DNA of 12,772 bases from Microcoleus sp. herbarium2 (GCA_036700245.1 JAUBOM010000168.1:1-12772); one strand, 5' to 3'. Shown: positions 1,665 through 11,128, counted from the first letter of the stretch. Notes: generated from the sequence alone by a model not told the origin. Numbers and translations: made by a program.

Positions 1665-2450
1665 TTAATCTCGCAATCCCCGATCGCGCAACCAAGCATC
1701 TGCCCAAATTGTATCTGTTTCAGACAATGGCGGTATTGGCTCCCGAGAGTAATCAATTTCCATGTCATAACCGGCAATATCGTATACTTGATTAAAAAGC
1801 ATTTGCAAATCAACAATAGGTTCCGAGTCTTCTGGACGCAAAGGCACTGGGAAAACAGGAATTGAATTTTGAAGATTAAAAGCATACATATCGCCTGAAG
1901 GAAGGCGATTTCCCCTACAAACCAAAATCCGATATTGACTCTCAAGATTATTCCCAAGCACTGGCATTGGTTCACCGCGTCGCAGCAAATCAATCTCAAT
2001 CAAATGAGTGCGACTGCCCAGTATTTTTTCGCGTTTTTTCTCATACATTTGCCGACCTTTTCCAGGTCGTTTATTAGTAGGTGAAAGTATTTCGATCGTT
2101 GTGACTACTTCTTTGGTTTCCACTCCTCTTATCTCTAAATAACCTTCCTTGATAATTTCAGGCATAGGAAGTGTCACCGTCACCGGTTGTGCTGGAGGTG
2201 ATAAAAGAGCTAGATTCGCTGCGGGGTTATTTGATGTCTGAGAACGCTGTATAGTCACATCGGGAATACCGACAAGCAGTGAATTTTCGCCGCTGGTTTC
2301 ATACATTCGCAACTCTACGGCAACTCGATATTTAGGACGCAGTTGCGGAGATAAAAATCTGGCAATTTCACTAATCAACCAGTGATGCAATTCAGGCCAT
2401 AGGTTAGGATGTTCTAAATACGGATCCATACCGGGAAAGGGAGATGGCAT
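1665..2450 (-). CDS. DUF4058-like protein with a PD-(D/E)xK-type nuclease-fold motif
   Basis: MPSPFPGMDPYLEHPNLWPELHHWLI... matches my recollection of the DUF4058 N-terminus. GIPDV ... IEILSPTNK ... YEKK resembles the Uma2/PD-(D/E)xK pattern. I place the start at ATG 2450, which has AAGGAG 8 nt upstream, rather than at the TTG at 2519 used by the ORF track. Confidence 0.8.
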   Translation of the reverse strand: MPSPFPGMDPYLEHPNLWPELHHWLISEIARFLSPQLRPKYRVAVELRMYETSGENSLLVGIPDVTIQRSQTSNNPAANLALLSPPAQPVTVTLPMPEIIKEGYLEIRGVETKEVVTTIEILSPTNKRPGKGRQMYEKKREKILGSRTHLIEIDLLRRGEPMPVLGNNLESQYRILVCRGNRLPSGDMYAFNLQNSIPVFPVPLRPEDSEPIVDLQMLFNQVYDIAGYDMEIDYSREPIPPLSETDTIWADAWLRDRGLRD

Positions 2451-2687
2451 TGATTTGACTCCTTGACTCAAGTCTATTTCCAGTTTAACAATACTTTTCT
2501 GACGCGAAGGGCTTGCCAACAGGTTTTAGGGCATAGCTTTGCTTGTTGCAGATGATGACTGAAGACTCGATCGACCTTTTGCAATAATAGGTTCGATCGC
2601 ACATCTTGCACTTATTGGCATATTCCGTCGGGCGTTTAAACCCCTGCCGGAATATGGCAACAAATGCAAGATATCAGTTCGATCGCA

Positions 2688-2930: not shown

Positions 2931-3054
2931 AGGAAAATCCTTCCCACTTTTGTGGGTGGTGAATGAAAGGCGATCGCTCTTGATTTCTCAGGTCGGAGGG
3001 CGATCGCTGTATTTAACTATTAAAAGCCAAAGACGTAGCTTCTGTCAAGCATAA

Positions 3055-3267
3055 ATGGGGTTAATTAGGTTGCGAGTTCGAGAACTGGCTGAGGAGAAGA
3101 GTTGGACGCTGAAAGAAGTTTCCGAGAGAACGGGTATTCCGTACAGCACGGTCAAAAATTACGCGCAAGCTCCTAAGCTGGCAACGGTGGACTACACGGC
3201 TTTGCAGAAACTTGCTGAAGTCTTCGATGTGATGGTGGAAGATTTGGTTGAGGTTTTGGAACGGTAA
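3055..3267 (+). CDS. Small XRE/Cro-C1-type HTH protein (70 aa), paralog 1 of 3
   Basis: MGLIRLRVRELAEEKSWTLKEVSERTGIPYSTVKNYAQ...VDYTALQKLAEVFDVMVEDLVEVLER fits the single-domain Cro/C1 layout: helix, turn, recognition helix, then the 'D..tL.kla.afd....DL.e' tail. I recall this as HTH_26-like. Confidence 0.85.
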   Translation: MGLIRLRVRELAEEKSWTLKEVSERTGIPYSTVKNYAQAPKLATVDYTALQKLAEVFDVMVEDLVEVLER

Positions 3268-3287
3268 ACTGATTTTTCAGCGGCAAA

Positions 3288-3500
3288 ATGGGGTTAATTC
3301 GATTGCGGGTTCGAGAACTAGCCGAAGAGAAGGGTTGGACACTAAAAGAAGTTTCTGAGCGATCGGGCATTCCTTACAGTACGGTTAGAAGCTATGCCCA
3401 TTCTCCCAAGCTGGCAACTGTAGACTATACAGCTTTGAATAAGATGGCTCGTGCTTTCGATATTGCGATCGAAGATTTAGTTGAGATTTTGGAAGAGTAG
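3288..3500 (+). CDS. Small XRE/Cro-C1-type HTH protein (70 aa), paralog 2 of 3
   Basis: Same length and architecture as 3055-3267, starting 233 bp downstream of it. Confidence 0.85.
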   Translation: MGLIRLRVRELAEEKGWTLKEVSERSGIPYSTVRSYAHSPKLATVDYTALNKMARAFDIAIEDLVEILEE

Positions 3501-3516
3501 GCTGATTTATCGGAAT

Positions 3517-3729
3517 ATGGGACGAATTAGGCTGCGAGTTCGAGAATTTGCTCAAGAGAAGGGTTGGAATATGACAGAAGTATCCAAAAGAACAGGTATT
3601 CCATATACCACGATCATTACCTATGCCAATTCTTCAGGCATGGCTACCGTTGACTACACAGCTTTGGACAAGATGGCTCGTGCGTTCGATATTGCGATCG
3701 AAGATTTAGTTGAGATTTTGGAACACTAA
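3517..3729 (+). CDS. Small XRE/Cro-C1-type HTH protein (70 aa), paralog 3 of 3
   Basis: The ATG at 3517 (MGRIRLRV...) aligns with the starts of paralogs 1 and 2. The TTG at 3481 in the ORF track would overlap paralog 2 and adds non-homologous residues. The last ~54 nt are nearly identical to paralog 2. Confidence 0.85.
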   Translation: MGRIRLRVREFAQEKGWNMTEVSKRTGIPYTTIITYANSSGMATVDYTALDKMARAFDIAIEDLVEILEH

Positions 3730-3747
3730 ACTGATTAGTTCGCGATC

Positions 3748-3942: not shown

Positions 3943-4434
3943 ATGCCGATCAATCGCCTGTCTCAAATTGAAAAAAACTTGGAATTGCTGCAAGAGCAAT
4001 TAGGGGGCAAGGAGGAGGCTCTAATTGTAGCAGCGCAAGAAGAAAAGATCCGAATTAAACAGCAAATCCGAGAGCTACGCAAGGAGATTCGGGAGCAGGA
4101 AGAGGAGTATTGGCAGGTTCTCGCTCAGCAAACGAAAACGGTGGAAATTCCCGAACATGAGGCTGAGATTATTGTTGCCGAGATTGTCGAAGAAGTTGGG
4201 AAAATAGAAGTGCAGGGACAGTATTCAGATGAAGTGCTTCAGATTTTGCAGGAGATTCGGGACAAGCTAAACCAACCGGGAGCGACAGCGGCAGCGAAAG
4301 TTAAATGGGTGATCTCAACTAATTTCCCGTTCGTGGCAATTTCCTGCGAGGGTGAAGTGGATACACAGAAGTCATTAAAGCAGCATTTCCCAACGTTTCA
4401 TAACTGGGCTAAGGCATTAGCAAAAAAGTCCTAG
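3943..4434 (+). CDS. Coiled-coil N-terminal module (163 aa), probably the N-terminal domain of the downstream NB-ARC-TPR protein
   Basis: ATG at 3943 with GGAG 8 nt upstream; the TTG at 3853 in the ORF track runs into the repeat element. Residues 1-60 are heptad-rich and charged (LSQIEKNLELLQEQL...IRELRKEIREQEEEY). The C-terminal part contains a short hydrophobic stretch (VKWVISTNFPFVAISC). The ORF ends GCA AAA AAG TCC TAG inside the region where the NB-ARC frame is already open. Confidence 0.7.
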   Translation: MPINRLSQIEKNLELLQEQLGGKEEALIVAAQEEKIRIKQQIRELRKEIREQEEEYWQVLAQQTKTVEIPEHEAEIIVAEIVEEVGKIEVQGQYSDEVLQILQEIRDKLNQPGATAAAKVKWVISTNFPFVAISCEGEVDTQKSLKQHFPTFHNWAKALAKKS

Positions 4435-4465
4435 ACCTGGAGCGAAAAACACCTAATCCAGGTTT
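4422..4465 (+). other. Candidate -1 recoding site: in-phase A_AAA_AAG heptamer plus downstream hairpin
   Basis: The heptamer at 4422-4428 is in X_XXY_YYZ phase with ORF 3943-4434. A hairpin can form between 4433-4441 and 4457-4465 with a 15-nt loop. A -1 shift enters the NB-ARC frame. Confidence 0.45.
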
Positions 4466-4538
4466 CACAAGTTTTTACCAACTATACGATATTCCCTCCG
4501 AACTCGGTTCAAAAAACTTTGTCGGACGGGATGAGGAG

Positions 4539-6716
4539 ATGCAGCAATTGCACGGATTGTTGCAGGATGGGAGCCGCGTTGCGATCGCCGCGGCGTCGGG
4601 AATGGGCGGCATCGGCAAGACAGAATTGGCATGGCAGTATGCAAACTTTCACCGCGAACACAACACCTATCCAGCAGGGATTTGGTGGCTGTTTGTCCGG
4701 GACAACGATTTAGCGCCGCAGGTGTTGCAGAAAGCGCTGCGAATGGGAATTGAGCCGCCGGATACTCTCGACAATCTGGAGGAACGGTTGCAGTTTTGCT
4801 ACGAAGAGTGGGCAAAAAAAACCTCTGGCAATGCTCTGCTGGTATTGGATGATGTCAACGATTACCGCGCGGTGCAGCGGTTGCTGCCGAGAAATCCCCG
4901 CTTTAAGGTGTTGCTGACTGCGCGACAGCGACTGGAAGAAAAAACCTTGCAGCGATTGGATTTAAAGAAGCTCAGACCCTTGGATGCTTTCAAGTTACTG
5001 TATGAAGTTAGTCAGGCAGAGACTCGCATTGTTCAGGAACAGATTGTTGCTGAGAAATTATGTGCTTGGTTGGAGTATTTGCCCTTGGGGATTGAACTGG
5101 TGGCAACCTTTCTCAAGGTAGAGCCAGATGTGTCGGTAGCAGAGTTATTGGCACAGTTGCAGCAAAAGCTGTTGCAGGATGAGGTGCTGACTCCTGTAGC
5201 GGCGGCTTTTGAGTTAAGTTGGGTGCAGTTAAATGCTGCCGAACAGCAGTTGGCGGTATTGCTGAGTGTGTTTGCTTTGGCTCCCATGCCTTGGCAGTTG
5301 GTGGAGTCAGTGGTCGTAGTTTGTAGAGTAGAAGCCCCAAAGCAAAACTGGCTGAAGAAATTGTTGGCGGTGTGGGGAAAGGTGCAAGCACCCCAGCAGT
5401 GGTGTTTGCTACTGGACGATCGGGTTTTGAGCCAGAGTCGGCGGCGTTTAGTGGAGTTGAGTTTGCTGGGGCGGGTGGAGCAAAAGCAGTATCAACTTCA
5501 TGCTTTGATTCGAGAGTTTTTTGCAGCCAAATTGCAGGAACGCGCCGATGCTGAGATTTTGCGGAGAAGTTTTGCCGCGGCGCTGACAGCGGTGGCAAAG
5601 ACGATTCCGCAGACTGTGACGCTGGAGGTGCAGCAACGGGTGAAGGAGGCGCTGCCCCATTTGGAGGTGGTGGCGGAGCAATGGTCGCATTTGCTGGAAG
5701 ATAGTGATTCTGTGTGGTCTTTCACGGTTTTGGGGCTGATTGCTCAGGGACAGAGTTTGTCGGCAGAGGCAGAAAAGTGGTTCAAAGCTTGCCTCCAGAT
5801 GACAGAGAAACGTTGCGGAGCCGAACATTCCCTTACGGCAAAGAGTTTGAACAATCTGGCATTGCTGTACGATGCAATGGGACGCTACCCAGAGGCGGAA
5901 CCCTTGTATGTGCGATCGCTCTCTATTTACGAGCAGCAGCTCGGAGCCGACCATCCCGATACAGCTCTGAGTTTGAACAATCTGGCAGCCCTTTACTATG
6001 CAATGGGTCGCTACGCGGAAGCGGAACCTTTGTATGTGCGATCGCTCTCGATTTACGAGCAGCAGCTAGAAGCCGACCATCCCAATACGGCTACGACTTT
6101 GAGCAATCAGGCAGAGCTATACCGTGCGATGGGACGCTACCCAGAAGCGGAACCCTTGTATGTACGCTCGCTCGCCATCAGGGAGCAGCAGCTCGGAGCG
6201 GAACATCCCGATACAGCTCTGAGTTTGAACAATCAGGCATTGCTGTACCATGCAATGGGACGTTACCAGGAGGCGGAACCCTTGTATGTGCGATCGCTCG
6301 CGATCAGAGAGCAAAAGCTCGGAGCAGAAGATCGCTATACGGCAACGAGTTTGAACAATCTGGCACAACTATACAGTGCAATGGGACGTTACCAGGAGGC
6401 GGAACCCTTGTATGTGCGATCGCTCTCTATCAGGGAGCAACAGCTCGGAGCCGACCATCCCGATACGGCAACGAGTTTGAACAATCTGGCAGGGCTGTAC
6501 AAGGAAATGGGACGCTACCCGGAGGCGGAACCTTTGTTAGCGCGAGCATTAGAAATCTTTTTGAACCGATTGGGAGAAAATCATCCCAACACCCAAACCG
6601 TTAGGAGCAATTTCATTTATTTTCTCCAGCAGACCATATCAGCGGGTCAAGACTCGCAACTTTCCCAGAATCCAACAACGCAAGCAATACTGAAGCAACT
6701 TCGGGAGACGGAGTAG
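4539..6716 (+). CDS. NB-ARC (STAND) NTPase with C-terminal TPR array. The first ATG is at 4539, but homology-like coding sequence extends upstream to about 4428 with no start codon.
   Basis: Walker A GMGGIGKTELA, Walker B LLVLDDVND, LLTAR (RNBS-B-like) and YLPLGIEL (GLPL-like), followed by six 42-aa kinesin-light-chain-type TPR pairs. The same frame upstream of 4539 reads ...YDIPSELGSKNFVGRDEE, the usual pre-P-loop motif. Confidence 0.9.
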   Translation: MQQLHGLLQDGSRVAIAAASGMGGIGKTELAWQYANFHREHNTYPAGIWWLFVRDNDLAPQVLQKALRMGIEPPDTLDNLEERLQFCYEEWAKKTSGNALLVLDDVNDYRAVQRLLPRNPRFKVLLTARQRLEEKTLQRLDLKKLRPLDAFKLLYEVSQAETRIVQEQIVAEKLCAWLEYLPLGIELVATFLKVEPDVSVAELLAQLQQKLLQDEVLTPVAAAFELSWVQLNAAEQQLAVLLSVFALAPMPWQLVESVVVVCRVEAPKQNWLKKLLAVWGKVQAPQQWCLLLDDRVLSQSRRRLVELSLLGRVEQKQYQLHALIREFFAAKLQERADAEILRRSFAAALTAVAKTIPQTVTLEVQQRVKEALPHLEVVAEQWSHLLEDSDSVWSFTVLGLIAQGQSLSAEAEKWFKACLQMTEKRCGAEHSLTAKSLNNLALLYDAMGRYPEAEPLYVRSLSIYEQQLGADHPDTALSLNNLAALYYAMGRYAEAEPLYVRSLSIYEQQLEADHPNTATTLSNQAELYRAMGRYPEAEPLYVRSLAIREQQLGAEHPDTALSLNNQALLYHAMGRYQEAEPLYVRSLAIREQKLGAEDRYTATSLNNLAQLYSAMGRYQEAEPLYVRSLSIREQQLGADHPDTATSLNNLAGLYKEMGRYPEAEPLLARALEIFLNRLGENHPNTQTVRSNFIYFLQQTISAGQDSQLSQNPTTQAILKQLRETE
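5847..6602 (+). repeat. Six tandem 126-bp (42-aa) TPR units with very high nucleotide identity
   Basis: Units start at 5847, 5973, 6099, 6225, 6351 and 6477. The 27-mer GCGGAACCCTTGTATGTGCGATCGCTC is exact in units 1, 4 and 5. The protein consensus is LNNLAxLYxAMGRYxEAEPLYVRSLxIxEQQLGADHPDTAxS. Confidence 0.9.
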
Positions 6717-6878: not shown

Positions 6879-7640
6879 CTAGAAATCGCAAAAATCTTCA
6901 CTTTCTTTCTCCATCGCAAAAAGTGCGATCGGCGTTGCAAGTTTTGATGGAAAACCGCTGCTTGATGCTAAAAATTCTGCGATCGCAGCTATCAGAACAG
7001 GCAATTTTTCTTTCATATCCTCCTGACAGATAACAGTGCGACACCGAGAGCTTAACTGTTCTAACAAATCAGATTCAATGTCTGTATTTCCCGCTGCAGT
7101 CGCGATCGATCGTGCAGCTTTTTCTAAATTTCCCTCGCACTCCTGAATCGTATCAAGAGCAGCTAATGCTTCTGGATCGTGTTTTAATTGTTCGCGGAAC
7201 CGATCGATTTCTTCAGCCGTGACTGTAGCGGTAGTTGGGCGATCGAATTCTTGATTTTCCCCGGTGATTTTTGGCAGCAGCCTTGCCTCAATTTCTTTTT
7301 CTAACTTTTGCCGCAACTTCTGTTCCACTTCTAATTCAATTTGCGGTCGAAGTTTTTCCTCAATTTCTTGTTCTAATTTTTGGCGTAGTTTCTCCTCAAT
7401 TTCTTTTTCCCTTTCTTTTTGTTTTTCCCGAGCGACTTCAGCTTTTTTCTTAATTGCTTCCTCAGCGATGCGAATATTTTCTGCAATTGGCACACCATCT
7501 TCTGTCACTAAAGGAGGCATTTGTTGGTATTTCAGACTCGGATGATGAAATAATGCCCGAAGAGCTTCCATATCGTCCCGGTGTGCGAGCACATATTTCC
7601 TGAGTTCAGCAACGGTCATTTCATTAAAGTTGGGTTTCAT
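6879..7640 (-). CDS. Hypothetical protein (253 aa): small conserved N-terminal domain, repetitive charged coiled coil, and an unknown C-terminal domain
   Basis: ATG at 7640 with GGAG 9 nt upstream. The N-terminus MKPNFNEMTVAELRKYVLAHRDDMEALRALF resembles a short cyanobacterial family I recall as DUF6887; this is from memory and needs checking. The middle has EKLRQKLEQEIEEKLRPQIELEVEQKLRQKLEKEIE internal repeats. I do not recognise the C-terminal ~110 aa. Confidence 0.75.
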   Translation of the reverse strand: MKPNFNEMTVAELRKYVLAHRDDMEALRALFHHPSLKYQQMPPLVTEDGVPIAENIRIAEEAIKKKAEVAREKQKEREKEIEEKLRQKLEQEIEEKLRPQIELEVEQKLRQKLEKEIEARLLPKITGENQEFDRPTTATVTAEEIDRFREQLKHDPEALAALDTIQECEGNLEKAARSIATAAGNTDIESDLLEQLSSRCRTVICQEDMKEKLPVLIAAIAEFLASSSGFPSKLATPIALFAMEKESEDFCDF

Positions 7641-9765: not shown

Positions 9766-9940
9766 TTTTTTTAAGAATTGTTAACGTTCTTTTGTTATTA
9801 TGAGCCGATCGACTGCCACAATTTACTCTTGAACCCCTCAAAGAATATCTATTTAACGAACCGCGAAGACGCAAAGGGCGCGAAGGAAGAGGAAGAAGAA
9901 GATAGGTAATGTCTTGTTCGGTTCCGGAGTAGGCTGCATA

Positions 9941-11128
9941 ATGGGTTACATGGAATGTCCTCGATGCGAATCTGACCAAGTTCGTAAAAACGGCCGTCCC
10001 AACGGTCGCCAGCGGTATCTTTGCAAAGCTTGCCGCAAACAATTTTTTGAGCCCGCCGGTCTGCAGTCCTTAAGTCGCAAATGCACCGAAACACGGTTAA
10101 GCGAAGCTATCCCGAAGGAAATCGCCCCTGCAACCACCACAGAGTCCGGCCCGATTGCGATTTTGCTGTTGGATGCCGAAAATCTGAAACTTAAGGTTAA
10201 TACAGAACAATTTTTAGCCGGTTTGTGCGACTATCCCCTGCAAGTTAAAATTGCTTTTGCTAACTGGAAAAACCCGAGTATCGGCAAGTTGGATGCTGAA
10301 CTTTACGATCGCGGTTACGAACTGATTCACGTTCCGGGCGGTGCTAATAGTGCTGATGGTAAGATGATTGCTTTTGGCGCTGCTATTTTATATCGATATC
10401 GGGATGTGCGACAAGTTTTTGTCTGTTCTTCGGATGGTTTGTTAAATCATCTTTGCAATCAGTTACAAAATCAGGGCTTGACTGTATTTCGGGTGCGCCG
10501 GCAAAATTCGGTCTTGTCTGTTGAAAATCCTCTGACTGGTGATACTCATCACTATTCTTGTGAGAGGGAAATGGAAATCCCTAGTTTTGAAGAATTGGCT
10601 AGTCAAGTTGCAGAGTTGTTGAAGGCTGAATACAAATCTATTGAGGAGCGAATCGCTCGTTTTTCTAGTGTGGCTGAGCTTTTTCAAGAGCGCCGGACTG
10701 TTGTTTTCCCTTCTACAACTTCCCCTGCTGCACTGTCGGAGTCAGCACAAAACGAAGTTACCCCCGTGCTTGAAGCATCTTTGGCTACCCTTGCTGTCAA
10801 TCAAAATGTTGCCGAGCCAAATTTGCCCGAAACAATACCTGGTCTCAATTCTAATGCTATTGAGTCGCTGGATGTTTTTCAAACTATACTTGTAGAAATA
10901 ATAGAATCTGCAAAAATTGAGTTAAAAGAGGATGCTATTCCTGTGGCCAAAATCAAGAAAGATTTTTTGGCTAAGTATCAAACTCAGGCTGATTTAGTTG
11001 TGAAAAACTTTTTGGGTAAAAATTCCAGTTTAATCAAATATTTGCAGTCGGAATCTGGGGTTTTTGAAGTAAAATTAATCGGTCAGGAACATCAAGTGGC
11101 GATCGTCGCCCAAAAATCCTCCACTTGA
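9941..11128 (+). CDS. Zn-ribbon + NYN (LabA-like, PIN-fold) + OST-HTH/LOTUS-like domain protein, ending at an in-frame TGA
   Basis: CPRCESDQVRKNGRPNGRQRYLCKACRKQF is a CxxC...CxxC ribbon. IAILLLDAENL, NSADGKMI and VCSSDGLL fit NYN acidic motifs. The C-terminal ~75 aa (FQTILVEIIESAK...FEVKLIGQEHQVAIV) look LOTUS-like. I prefer the ATG at 9941 (GGAG 11 nt upstream) over the TTG at 9914. Confidence 0.8.
   Translation: MGYMECPRCESDQVRKNGRPNGRQRYLCKACRKQFFEPAGLQSLSRKCTETRLSEAIPKEIAPATTTESGPIAILLLDAENLKLKVNTEQFLAGLCDYPLQVKIAFANWKNPSIGKLDAELYDRGYELIHVPGGANSADGKMIAFGAAILYRYRDVRQVFVCSSDGLLNHLCNQLQNQGLTVFRVRRQNSVLSVENPLTGDTHHYSCEREMEIPSFEELASQVAELLKAEYKSIEERIARFSSVAELFQERRTVVFPSTTSPAALSESAQNEVTPVLEASLATLAVNQNVAEPNLPETIPGLNSNAIESLDVFQTILVEIIESAKIELKEDAIPVAKIKKDFLAKYQTQADLVVKNFLGKNSSLIKYLQSESGVFEVKLIGQEHQVAIVAQKSST

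Follow-up and report, generated by a model that had tools for sequence, protein, structure and literature searches.

To our knowledge, few chromosomal, non-mobile genes of bacteria are known to use programmed -1 ribosomal frameshifting (-1 PRF); dnaX, copA and csoS2 are examples. In insertion sequences of the IS3 family such as IS911 and IS150, an A_AAA_AAG heptamer ends the short open reading frame (ORF) orfA, the overlapping -1 ORF has no efficient start, a structure lies 3' of the heptamer, and the orfAB fusion is the product with full function. In alpha-carboxysomes, a -1 frameshift sets the ratio of the two isoforms CsoS2A and CsoS2B (PMC5009743), and dnaX of Thermus thermophilus undergoes slippage at a nine-base homopolymer run (PMC3711429, PMC5009743). 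Filamentous bacteria carry Bell/NLR pairs with BASS amyloid signalling motifs, which are encoded by separate ORFs, some of them overlapping (bioRxiv 10.1101/2020.01.06.895854). Here we analyze a 12,772-nucleotide (nt) stretch of DNA from Microcoleus sp. herbarium2 (GCA_036700245.1 JAUBOM010000168.1:1-12772), called the window throughout, in which the gene for a 163-amino acid (aa) helical protein, the N-domain, overlaps a -1 ORF for an NLR-like NB-ARC/TPR protein. We propose that programmed dnaX-type -1 ribosomal frameshifting at an A_AAA_AAG heptamer would yield both the free 163-aa domain and a 924-aa fusion, a reading to which we assign a probability of about 0.74.

Two reading frames overlap at a slippery heptamer

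The zero-frame ORF ends in GCA (4420) AAA AAG TCC TAG, which puts the A_AAA_AAG heptamer in X_XXY_YYZ phase, as a preliminary description of this locus had stated. The NB-ARC frame lies at -1 relative to it, again as described: a TAA at 4410-4412 closes the -1 frame, which is then open from 4413 to 6716, and this TAA and the zero-frame stop together therefore confine the joint openness of the two frames to one short stretch (Table 1). From there on, the -1 frame holds no ATG, GTG or TTG before ATG 4539, 117 nt past the heptamer and directly after FVGRDEE, so the start-less entry claimed earlier is borne out by the sequence. Recomputing the product sizes returned the values given before, 163 aa for the N-domain alone and 924 aa (162 + 762) for the predicted fusion, whose junction peptide after a -1 slip would be ALAKKVLDLER (...AKKVLD...). 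With 5 occurrences against 7.3 expected, the string AAAAAAG is not itself enriched in the window, and the case therefore rests on its position, its phase and the comparison with other sequences.

The -1 ORF is a STAND/NB-ARC protein by its profile match, its hhGRExE motif, its Walker A motif and its C-terminal repeats. The match to the Pfam NB-ARC profile (PF00931) reaches 51.2 bits (E = 1.3e-13), which exceeds the gathering cutoff of 23.5, TPR_12 matches at E = 2.7e-106 and TPR_10 is also matched; the P-loop GMGGIGKT (4599-4622) lies downstream of ATG 4539. This ATG is the start that is chosen by gene callers, and annotated homologues begin at the same Met (12 matches found from the NLR side).

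For comparison within the genus we used ten genome loci (L001-L010) and the window, 11 loci in all. The start-less stretch resembles coding sequence in this set. Its -1-frame translation (4428-4538) includes the peptides VLDLER and TPNPGFTSFYQLYDIPSELGSK, and DNA identity across 4426-4545 is 92-97% among the Microcoleus loci, the same level as in the NB-ARC N-terminus. In an ungapped comparison, the variants at 4470-4538 count as 8 synonymous and 6 non-synonymous when read in the -1 frame; the corresponding figures for the other two frames are 1/12 and 3/10. This interval alone was used because indels spoil 4539-4838 and the N-domain. Judged by these counts, the linker shows a -1-frame coding signature. 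Further downstream, the TPR region at 5816-6537 consists of 5.7 tandem copies of a 126-bp unit (82% matches), and the -1 ORF ranges from 760 to 927 aa among the Microcoleus loci, consistent with repeat-number change.

Table 1. Features of the window, those of the overlap first and the neighbouring genes last (coordinates counted from the first nucleotide of the window).
Feature	Coordinates	Strand	Remarks
Zero-frame ORF, 163-aa all-helical N-domain protein	3943..4434	+	ATG 3943, 163 codons
SD-like UAAGG, candidate upstream stimulator	4410..4414	+	7 nt upstream of heptamer
Zero and -1 frames both open	4413..4434	+	22 nt, the sole such stretch; same length in 11/11 Microcoleus loci
Slippery heptamer A_AAA_AAG	4422..4428	+	X_XXY_YYZ phase of zero-frame ORF; unchanged in 19 Microcoleus-type loci
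Linker VLDLERKTPNPGFTSFYQLYDIPSELGSKN, then hhGRExE motif FVGRDEE (4518-4538)	4428..4538	+	-1 frame, start-codon-free
Zero-frame stop UAG	4432..4434	+	One codon past heptamer; overlaps hairpin base
Stem-loop, 9-bp stem AGACCUGGA/UCCAGGUUU, 15-nt loop	4433..4465	+	4 nt past heptamer
Remainder of -1 ORF	4539..6716	+	NB-ARC ~4530-5174; TPR_12/TPR_10 array ~5673-6599
Three tandem 233-bp copies of XRE/Cro-type helix-turn-helix (HTH) gene	3053..3736	+	Directly upstream of N-domain gene
DUF4058 protein	1665-2519	-	Neighbour
DUF6887 protein with long charged coiled-coil region	6879-7640	-	Neighbour
Zinc-ribbon and NYN-domain protein	9914-11128	+	Neighbour

Conservation of the site among relatives

With a query made of the N-domain, the junction and the linker, 155 proteins were retrieved. 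Identity is 71-100% for the 120 listed, a protein of Microcoleus sp. herbarium2 being identical to that of the window, and they match the N-domain part of the query only; nearly all of them are exactly 163 aa long with the same end residue, the rest having alternative upstream starts, and no fused protein occurs among these 120 closest homologues. At the DNA level, all 11 Microcoleus loci keep the heptamer, the -1 offset, the 22-nt overlap and the first -1-frame start at 117 nt past the heptamer. The preliminary description had asked whether close relatives keep the six-A run with its G (A6G) and the frame offset; they do, in 11 of 11 loci, and more than 120 proteins, nearly all with one and the same last residue, agree with this.

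To sample the family independently of the junction, metagenomes were scanned with the internal peptide YEAE[LI]DTE as the sole seed, which yielded 65 loci, including distant relatives at 33-61% identity from other cyanobacteria. In 61 of the 65, an in-phase A_AAA_AAG or a run of nine A (A9) lies 0-3 codons before the stop and the -1 frame is open across it; a long +1 frame was never seen at the junctions of these 65 loci. A 62nd locus (L078) is of Microcoleus type with an upstream indel. In every one of 62 unique junctions the codon preceding AAA_AAG ends in A (GCA, CTA, AAA, CCA, GTA, ACA or ATA), and the two Lys codons read AAA_AAG throughout or belong to an A9 run. Since the preceding codon is always NNA though the amino acid varies, selection acts on the nucleotide heptamer and not on the protein. 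The zero-frame stop directly follows the heptamer in 29 of the 62.

An exhaustive single-sequence query with the N-domain gave 216 cluster representatives, most of them stand-alone proteins of 160-170 aa with 26-56% identity. Among 150 listed representatives of clusters at 50% identity, 72 have Lys-Lys within the last nine residues, with differing tail lengths. The same cassette occurs in loci from Nostoc, Phormidesmis and a JGI metagenome. By these comparisons, a large gene family of cyanobacteria has kept the putative frameshift site.

Candidate stimulatory elements

The hairpin proposed earlier folds as described, with its 15-nt loop and a 4-nt spacer. Its arms (4433-4441/4457-4465) form eight Watson-Crick pairs and one G-U pair at -11.6 kcal/mol (z = -2.5), and equally good folding was found in only 3 of 200 shuffles. 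Across 17 distinct Microcoleus-type sequences, 96.7% of the stem cells are paired.

For the family as a whole, junctions were clustered by their 50 downstream nt into 29 clusters (23 A6G, 6 A9), with windows in the same ORFs as controls. Mean minimum free energy is -11.6 kcal/mol against -6.9 kcal/mol in the controls (p = 1.6e-4), and the mean z is -1.25 against -0.02 (p = 7.5e-5). In about 17 of the 23 A6G clusters, a hairpin starts 3-6 nt past the heptamer, as judged from folds read by eye; the six A9 clusters show no folding enrichment (mean z -0.27). The stem sequences are unrelated to one another (CUGCCCCUGGC, GCGCUUCUCCUGGU, CUUCCCUUGAUC, UCCCGCG, AGACCUGGA and others). From these predicted folds, the downstream hairpin is conserved across the family in structure without conservation of its sequence.

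Upstream of the heptamer, the weak Shine-Dalgarno (SD)-like element noted before is present as UAAGG. Complementarity to the anti-SD sequence at -20 to -4 is enriched in the family, with a mean of -5.7 kcal/mol against -2.3 kcal/mol in controls (p = 1e-8). A search of 4350-4550 against Rfam returned no frameshift element and no other family, a terminator scan found none at the hairpin, and the single promoter-like match (4464-4493) is no better than chance would give.

The N-domain, its partners and natural fusions

No family in Pfam, NCBIfam or PADLOC covers the N-domain; at E <= 0.1, Pfam yields just a spurious CENP-Q match. Its AlphaFold2 model (predicted local distance difference test 86.7) is all-helical with eight helices, for which Foldseek against the PDB returned generic helical bundles only (best E = 0.12, none with E < 0.1). 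Relatives of the domain are found at the C-terminus of TIR/SEFIR, ROC-COR, TRADD-N and SNF2 proteins, where most of the cyanobacterial ones have KK as their last residues (two have KR or WK), and others at the N-terminus of STAND NTPases (nSTAND1, NB-ARC-like). By analogy, the N-domain behaves architecturally like an effector-associated or adaptor domain. Membership in a described effector-associated domain (EAD) family was considered and rejected, as no Pfam EAD, NCBIfam or PADLOC model matches.

The -1 ORFs of the family encode NB-ARC, NACHT, nSTAND3, nSTAND4, AAA_22 and GUN4 proteins, with the hhGRE motif usually 16-53 residues past the shift site. At least nine lineages have no canonical start before this motif, and L035 and the L050 group have no start codon before the P-loop.

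Whether homologues exist as single fused ORFs had been posed as a check on the earlier description, and such ORFs do occur. In L021/L022 (3001-5169), a run of seven A (A7) replaces A6G (GCAAAAAAAGCT) and a single in-frame ORF of 722 aa results. Its residues 165-595 align at 66% identity with the -1 ORF of L041, from 11 residues past the L041 shift site onward. Two further proteins are in-frame fusions of the N-domain, one to NB-ARC-like and TPR regions (P0261) and one to nSTAND1 (P0179). These three cases argue that the fused polypeptide is a real, selected architecture.

Some loci vary in other ways. The L021/L022 ORF consists of the N-domain, an NTPase region with the P-loop GEPGAGKTT and a Gly/Val-rich segment with GLVFGLVGGL repeats that is probably membrane-spanning. 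In L008 (3323-4486) and L009 (3326-4495), the N-domain is preceded by about 220 further open codons in the zero frame (386-388 aa when counted from the first Met); this extension may encode an additional N-terminal domain, as is the case in P0122-P0126 and P0129. In L030 (3468-4215), the -1 ORF runs through FVGRDEEM into sequence resembling the TRADD-N-like N-terminus of P0122 (...DIEEGVKLKK...TSK), and a second N-domain-like copy lies at 3950-4215 (77% identity); this locus looks recombinant or rearranged. One protein of 258 aa (P0157) joins N-domain residues 1-104 to the last TPR repeats and C-terminus of a Microcoleus NLR and is an internal deletion or an assembly chimera.

Proposed mechanism

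Under programmed frameshifting, ribosomes on the 163-aa ORF would reach the A_AAA_AAG heptamer with a stop close by, the hairpin ahead and UAAGG upstream. The majority would stop in the zero frame and release the free 163-aa helical protein, and a minority would slip one base back on the two Lys codons and read through the start-less linker, the hhGRExE motif, NB-ARC and TPR to give the 924-aa N-domain/NLR-like fusion. That the slip takes place on the ribosome is inferred, as is its efficiency. The purpose would presumably be to keep the free adaptor or effector-associated domain and its sensor-tethered form in a fixed proportion.

A wider model, which we offer tentatively and consider rather doubtful, has the N-domain and A_AAA_AAG as a portable recoding module. 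Placed on at least six unrelated C-terminal modules (NB-ARC, NACHT, nSTAND3, nSTAND4, AAA_22-TPR, GUN4), it would fix a ratio of abundant free to rare tethered domain; on oligomerisation of an NLR-like sensor, the tethered copies would seed the assembly of free domain, by analogy with ASC/CARD filaments or NWD2/HET-S templating.

Several observations weigh against programmed frameshifting at this locus or in parts of the family. In the window, the 4-nt spacer of the hairpin is at the short end of the usual range, the predicted anti-SD duplex is modest (-4.1 kcal/mol), and the SD-like element stands 7 nt from the heptamer compared with 10 nt in dnaX. No covariation or compensatory change was found in the stem of the Microcoleus subgroup among the 17 distinct sequences, a test that is uninformative here because these stems are nearly invariant. 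The stem is weakened in L003/L032, L008 and L009, and the L045 group and the A9 lineages have no hairpin. ATG 4539 is kept in all 19 Microcoleus-type loci with GAGGAG just upstream, so that a 725-aa NB-ARC protein could conceivably be initiated separately; such independent initiation could add a third product. Lastly, the L065-type loci (L065 3500-4200; L046, L049, L063, L067, L068, L079) carry an insertion of about 0.6 kb between the frameshift site and the NB-ARC/TPR gene, which holds an 88-aa ORF that is RelE/ParE-like by eye. There, the -1 product would be just 32 aa longer and the NLR has its own ATG; this inserted cassette and separate start mean that the fusion is not obligatory everywhere. 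A similar peptide (NTQNNIFNL/NNQNNTFNL) flanks the L065-type insertion, and sister loci without it are L045, L057, L064, L069 and L071.

Alternative explanations

One alternative is that the locus holds two independent genes, a 163-aa protein and a separately started 725-aa NB-ARC/TPR protein, initiated at ATG 4539, at a non-canonical codon or by re-initiation, in the manner of a Bell/NLR pair; the heptamer would then be incidental or serve termination. The invariance of ATG 4539 in the Microcoleus subgroup, the upstream GAGGAG, the annotated homologues starting there and the separately initiated NLR of the L065-type loci all speak for it, and tightly spaced collinear effector/NLR pairs are common in cyanobacteria (bioRxiv 10.1101/2020.01.06.895854). 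A start at 4539, however, drops the conserved hhGRExE motif, and the Met itself is specific to the Microcoleus subgroup, being replaced by Leu or another residue in other lineages; several lineages have no start before the P-loop at all. The 111-nt start-less stretch is as conserved as the NB-ARC domain and has a -1-frame coding signature. Two genes would also leave unexplained both the in-phase heptamer with its NNA codon in 62/62 junctions and the in-frame fusions. No motif is common to the N-domain C-terminus and the NLR N-terminus, between which BLASTP finds no alignment at E <= 100. Taken together, we consider two independent genes quite unlikely.

Transcriptional slippage would place the same event on RNA polymerase, which would insert one A so that a fraction of the mRNAs carries A7 and encodes the fusion in a single frame. 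The protein product would be identical, the natural A7 allele of L021 shows that the state with one added A is functional, and 8 of the 62 junctions, mostly hairpin-free, have A9 instead of A6G. A six-A run is short, however, for efficient slippage by bacterial RNA polymerase. High efficiency has been described for runs of nine (PMC5009743). Slippage further leaves the enriched ribosomal features unexplained, that is, the A_AAA_AAG phase, the G at position 7, the NNA codon, the adjacent stop, the SD-like element and the 3' hairpin. For the window it thus appears decidedly unlikely, and of the three competing explanations in the preliminary description (pseudogene, sequencing error, transcriptional slippage) it is the only one that stays plausible, namely for the A9 lineages. 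These, lacking hairpins, may use transcriptional slippage instead, as Thermus dnaX does. The A9 sub-lineage (A_AAA_AAA_AAC type; junctions of L011, L027, L040, L042, L043, L048 and L053) is mostly hairpin-free, with L011 as a weak exception, has its stop 2-3 codons later and, where its ORFs were classified, encodes nSTAND_NTPase4 proteins.

Phase variation at the DNA level, with the A-run switching between A6 (split) and A7 (fused) within a population, would account for the presence of A6, A7 and A9 states in the family. Against it, run length is fixed in each lineage (19 of 19 Microcoleus-type loci are A6G), no fused protein appears among the 120 listed closest homologues, and a run of six A is short for slipped-strand switching, which makes this explanation very improbable. 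That the locus is a pseudogene or an assembly artefact, an ancestral A7 having lost one base or the homopolymer having been miscalled so that the fusion is broken here, is hardly conceivable: although an A7 in-frame allele is known in one lineage (L021/L022), both ORFs are intact downstream, and the same A6G, offset and stop recur in more than 180 independent isolate and metagenome sequences from many projects at 33-100% protein identity, a conservation that excludes sequencing error and pseudogene decay alike.

Neighbourhood of the locus

Each of the tandem HTH genes upstream encodes 70 aa with HTH_26/HTH_3 matches, and the copies agree at 76%. The upstream HTH proteins may regulate the locus. 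BLAST offsets suggest that the HTH copy number differs between Microcoleus loci, and an HTH_3 gene also lies upstream of the cassette in L012. The DUF4058, DUF6887 and NYN neighbours matched no PADLOC defence model.

Implications

If the frameshift reading is true, it would add a family of hundreds of -1 PRF genes across filamentous cyanobacteria. Members of this family differ naturally in the A-run (A6G, A9 or in-frame A7) and in whether a hairpin is present, which would make them useful for work on the evolution of frameshift signals. As annotated at present, such a locus appears as two genes, one for a 'hypothetical 163-aa protein' and one for an NB-ARC protein whose start lies just past its own hhGRExE motif; the N-terminal domain is consequently overlooked when bacterial NLRs are surveyed. 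How prokaryotic NLR systems amplify a signal could also be tested directly with a model in which free and sensor-fused adaptor are made in a set ratio.

Comparison with known systems

We found this case mentioned neither in the GeneTack study with its supplements nor in the 2016 review of recoding, the EAD papers or recent work on bacterial NLRs, which is no proof of absence, and the searched literature contained no report of recoding by bacterial NLR-like receptors. The mechanism is classical, and the gene family and its biological use appear unreported.

On the protein side, there is a parallel with EADs (Kaur et al. 2020, 2021; PMC7159879, PMC8195603). Like these, the N-domain is a helical, non-catalytic domain that occurs on both sensor NTPases and effector proteins, the 'EAD principle'; unlike them, it is about 160 aa long, EADs being described just as small domains (PMC7159879, PMC8195603). 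Frameshifting has 0 occurrences in these two papers. The Bell/NLR pairs resemble our locus in having the gene for a small helical protein immediately upstream of, and collinear with, an NB-ARC/TPR gene, and rarely the domain itself on the NLR N-terminus. They differ in that the N-domain of the window has no Bell-type N-terminal hydrophobic helix and the NLR ORF is start-less and would be entered by a frame shift. Assignment as a Bell/BASS amyloid-signalling pair was rejected because the two products have no common motif.

On the side of the signal, CsoS2 offers a chromosomal, non-mobile case of -1 PRF in autotrophic bacteria; it is a different gene, and its frameshift truncates the product, whereas the one proposed here extends it. 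The IS3 orfA/orfAB arrangement comes close, with its heptamer at the end of a short upstream ORF, its overlapping -1 ORF and its 3' structure. The window locus, however, is not a mobile element, has neither transposase domains nor terminal repeats, and its partner is a STAND NTPase of lineage-variable class. With E. coli dnaX (tau/gamma), the locus has in common the same A_AAA_AAG, the downstream stem-loop, an upstream SD-like element that in the window is a weak candidate stimulator, and two predicted products with a common N-terminus (PMC3711429), and the A9-run variants of the family resemble the homopolymer slippage site of Thermus dnaX. Differences from E. coli dnaX are a weaker SD-like element at a shorter distance (7 vs 10 nt), a 4-nt spacer, a 9-bp stem and an unrelated gene family; moreover, the shift in E. 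coli dnaX gives the shorter product, while here the longer product would result from it, as has been described for a 'novel type' of dnaX (PMC3711429).

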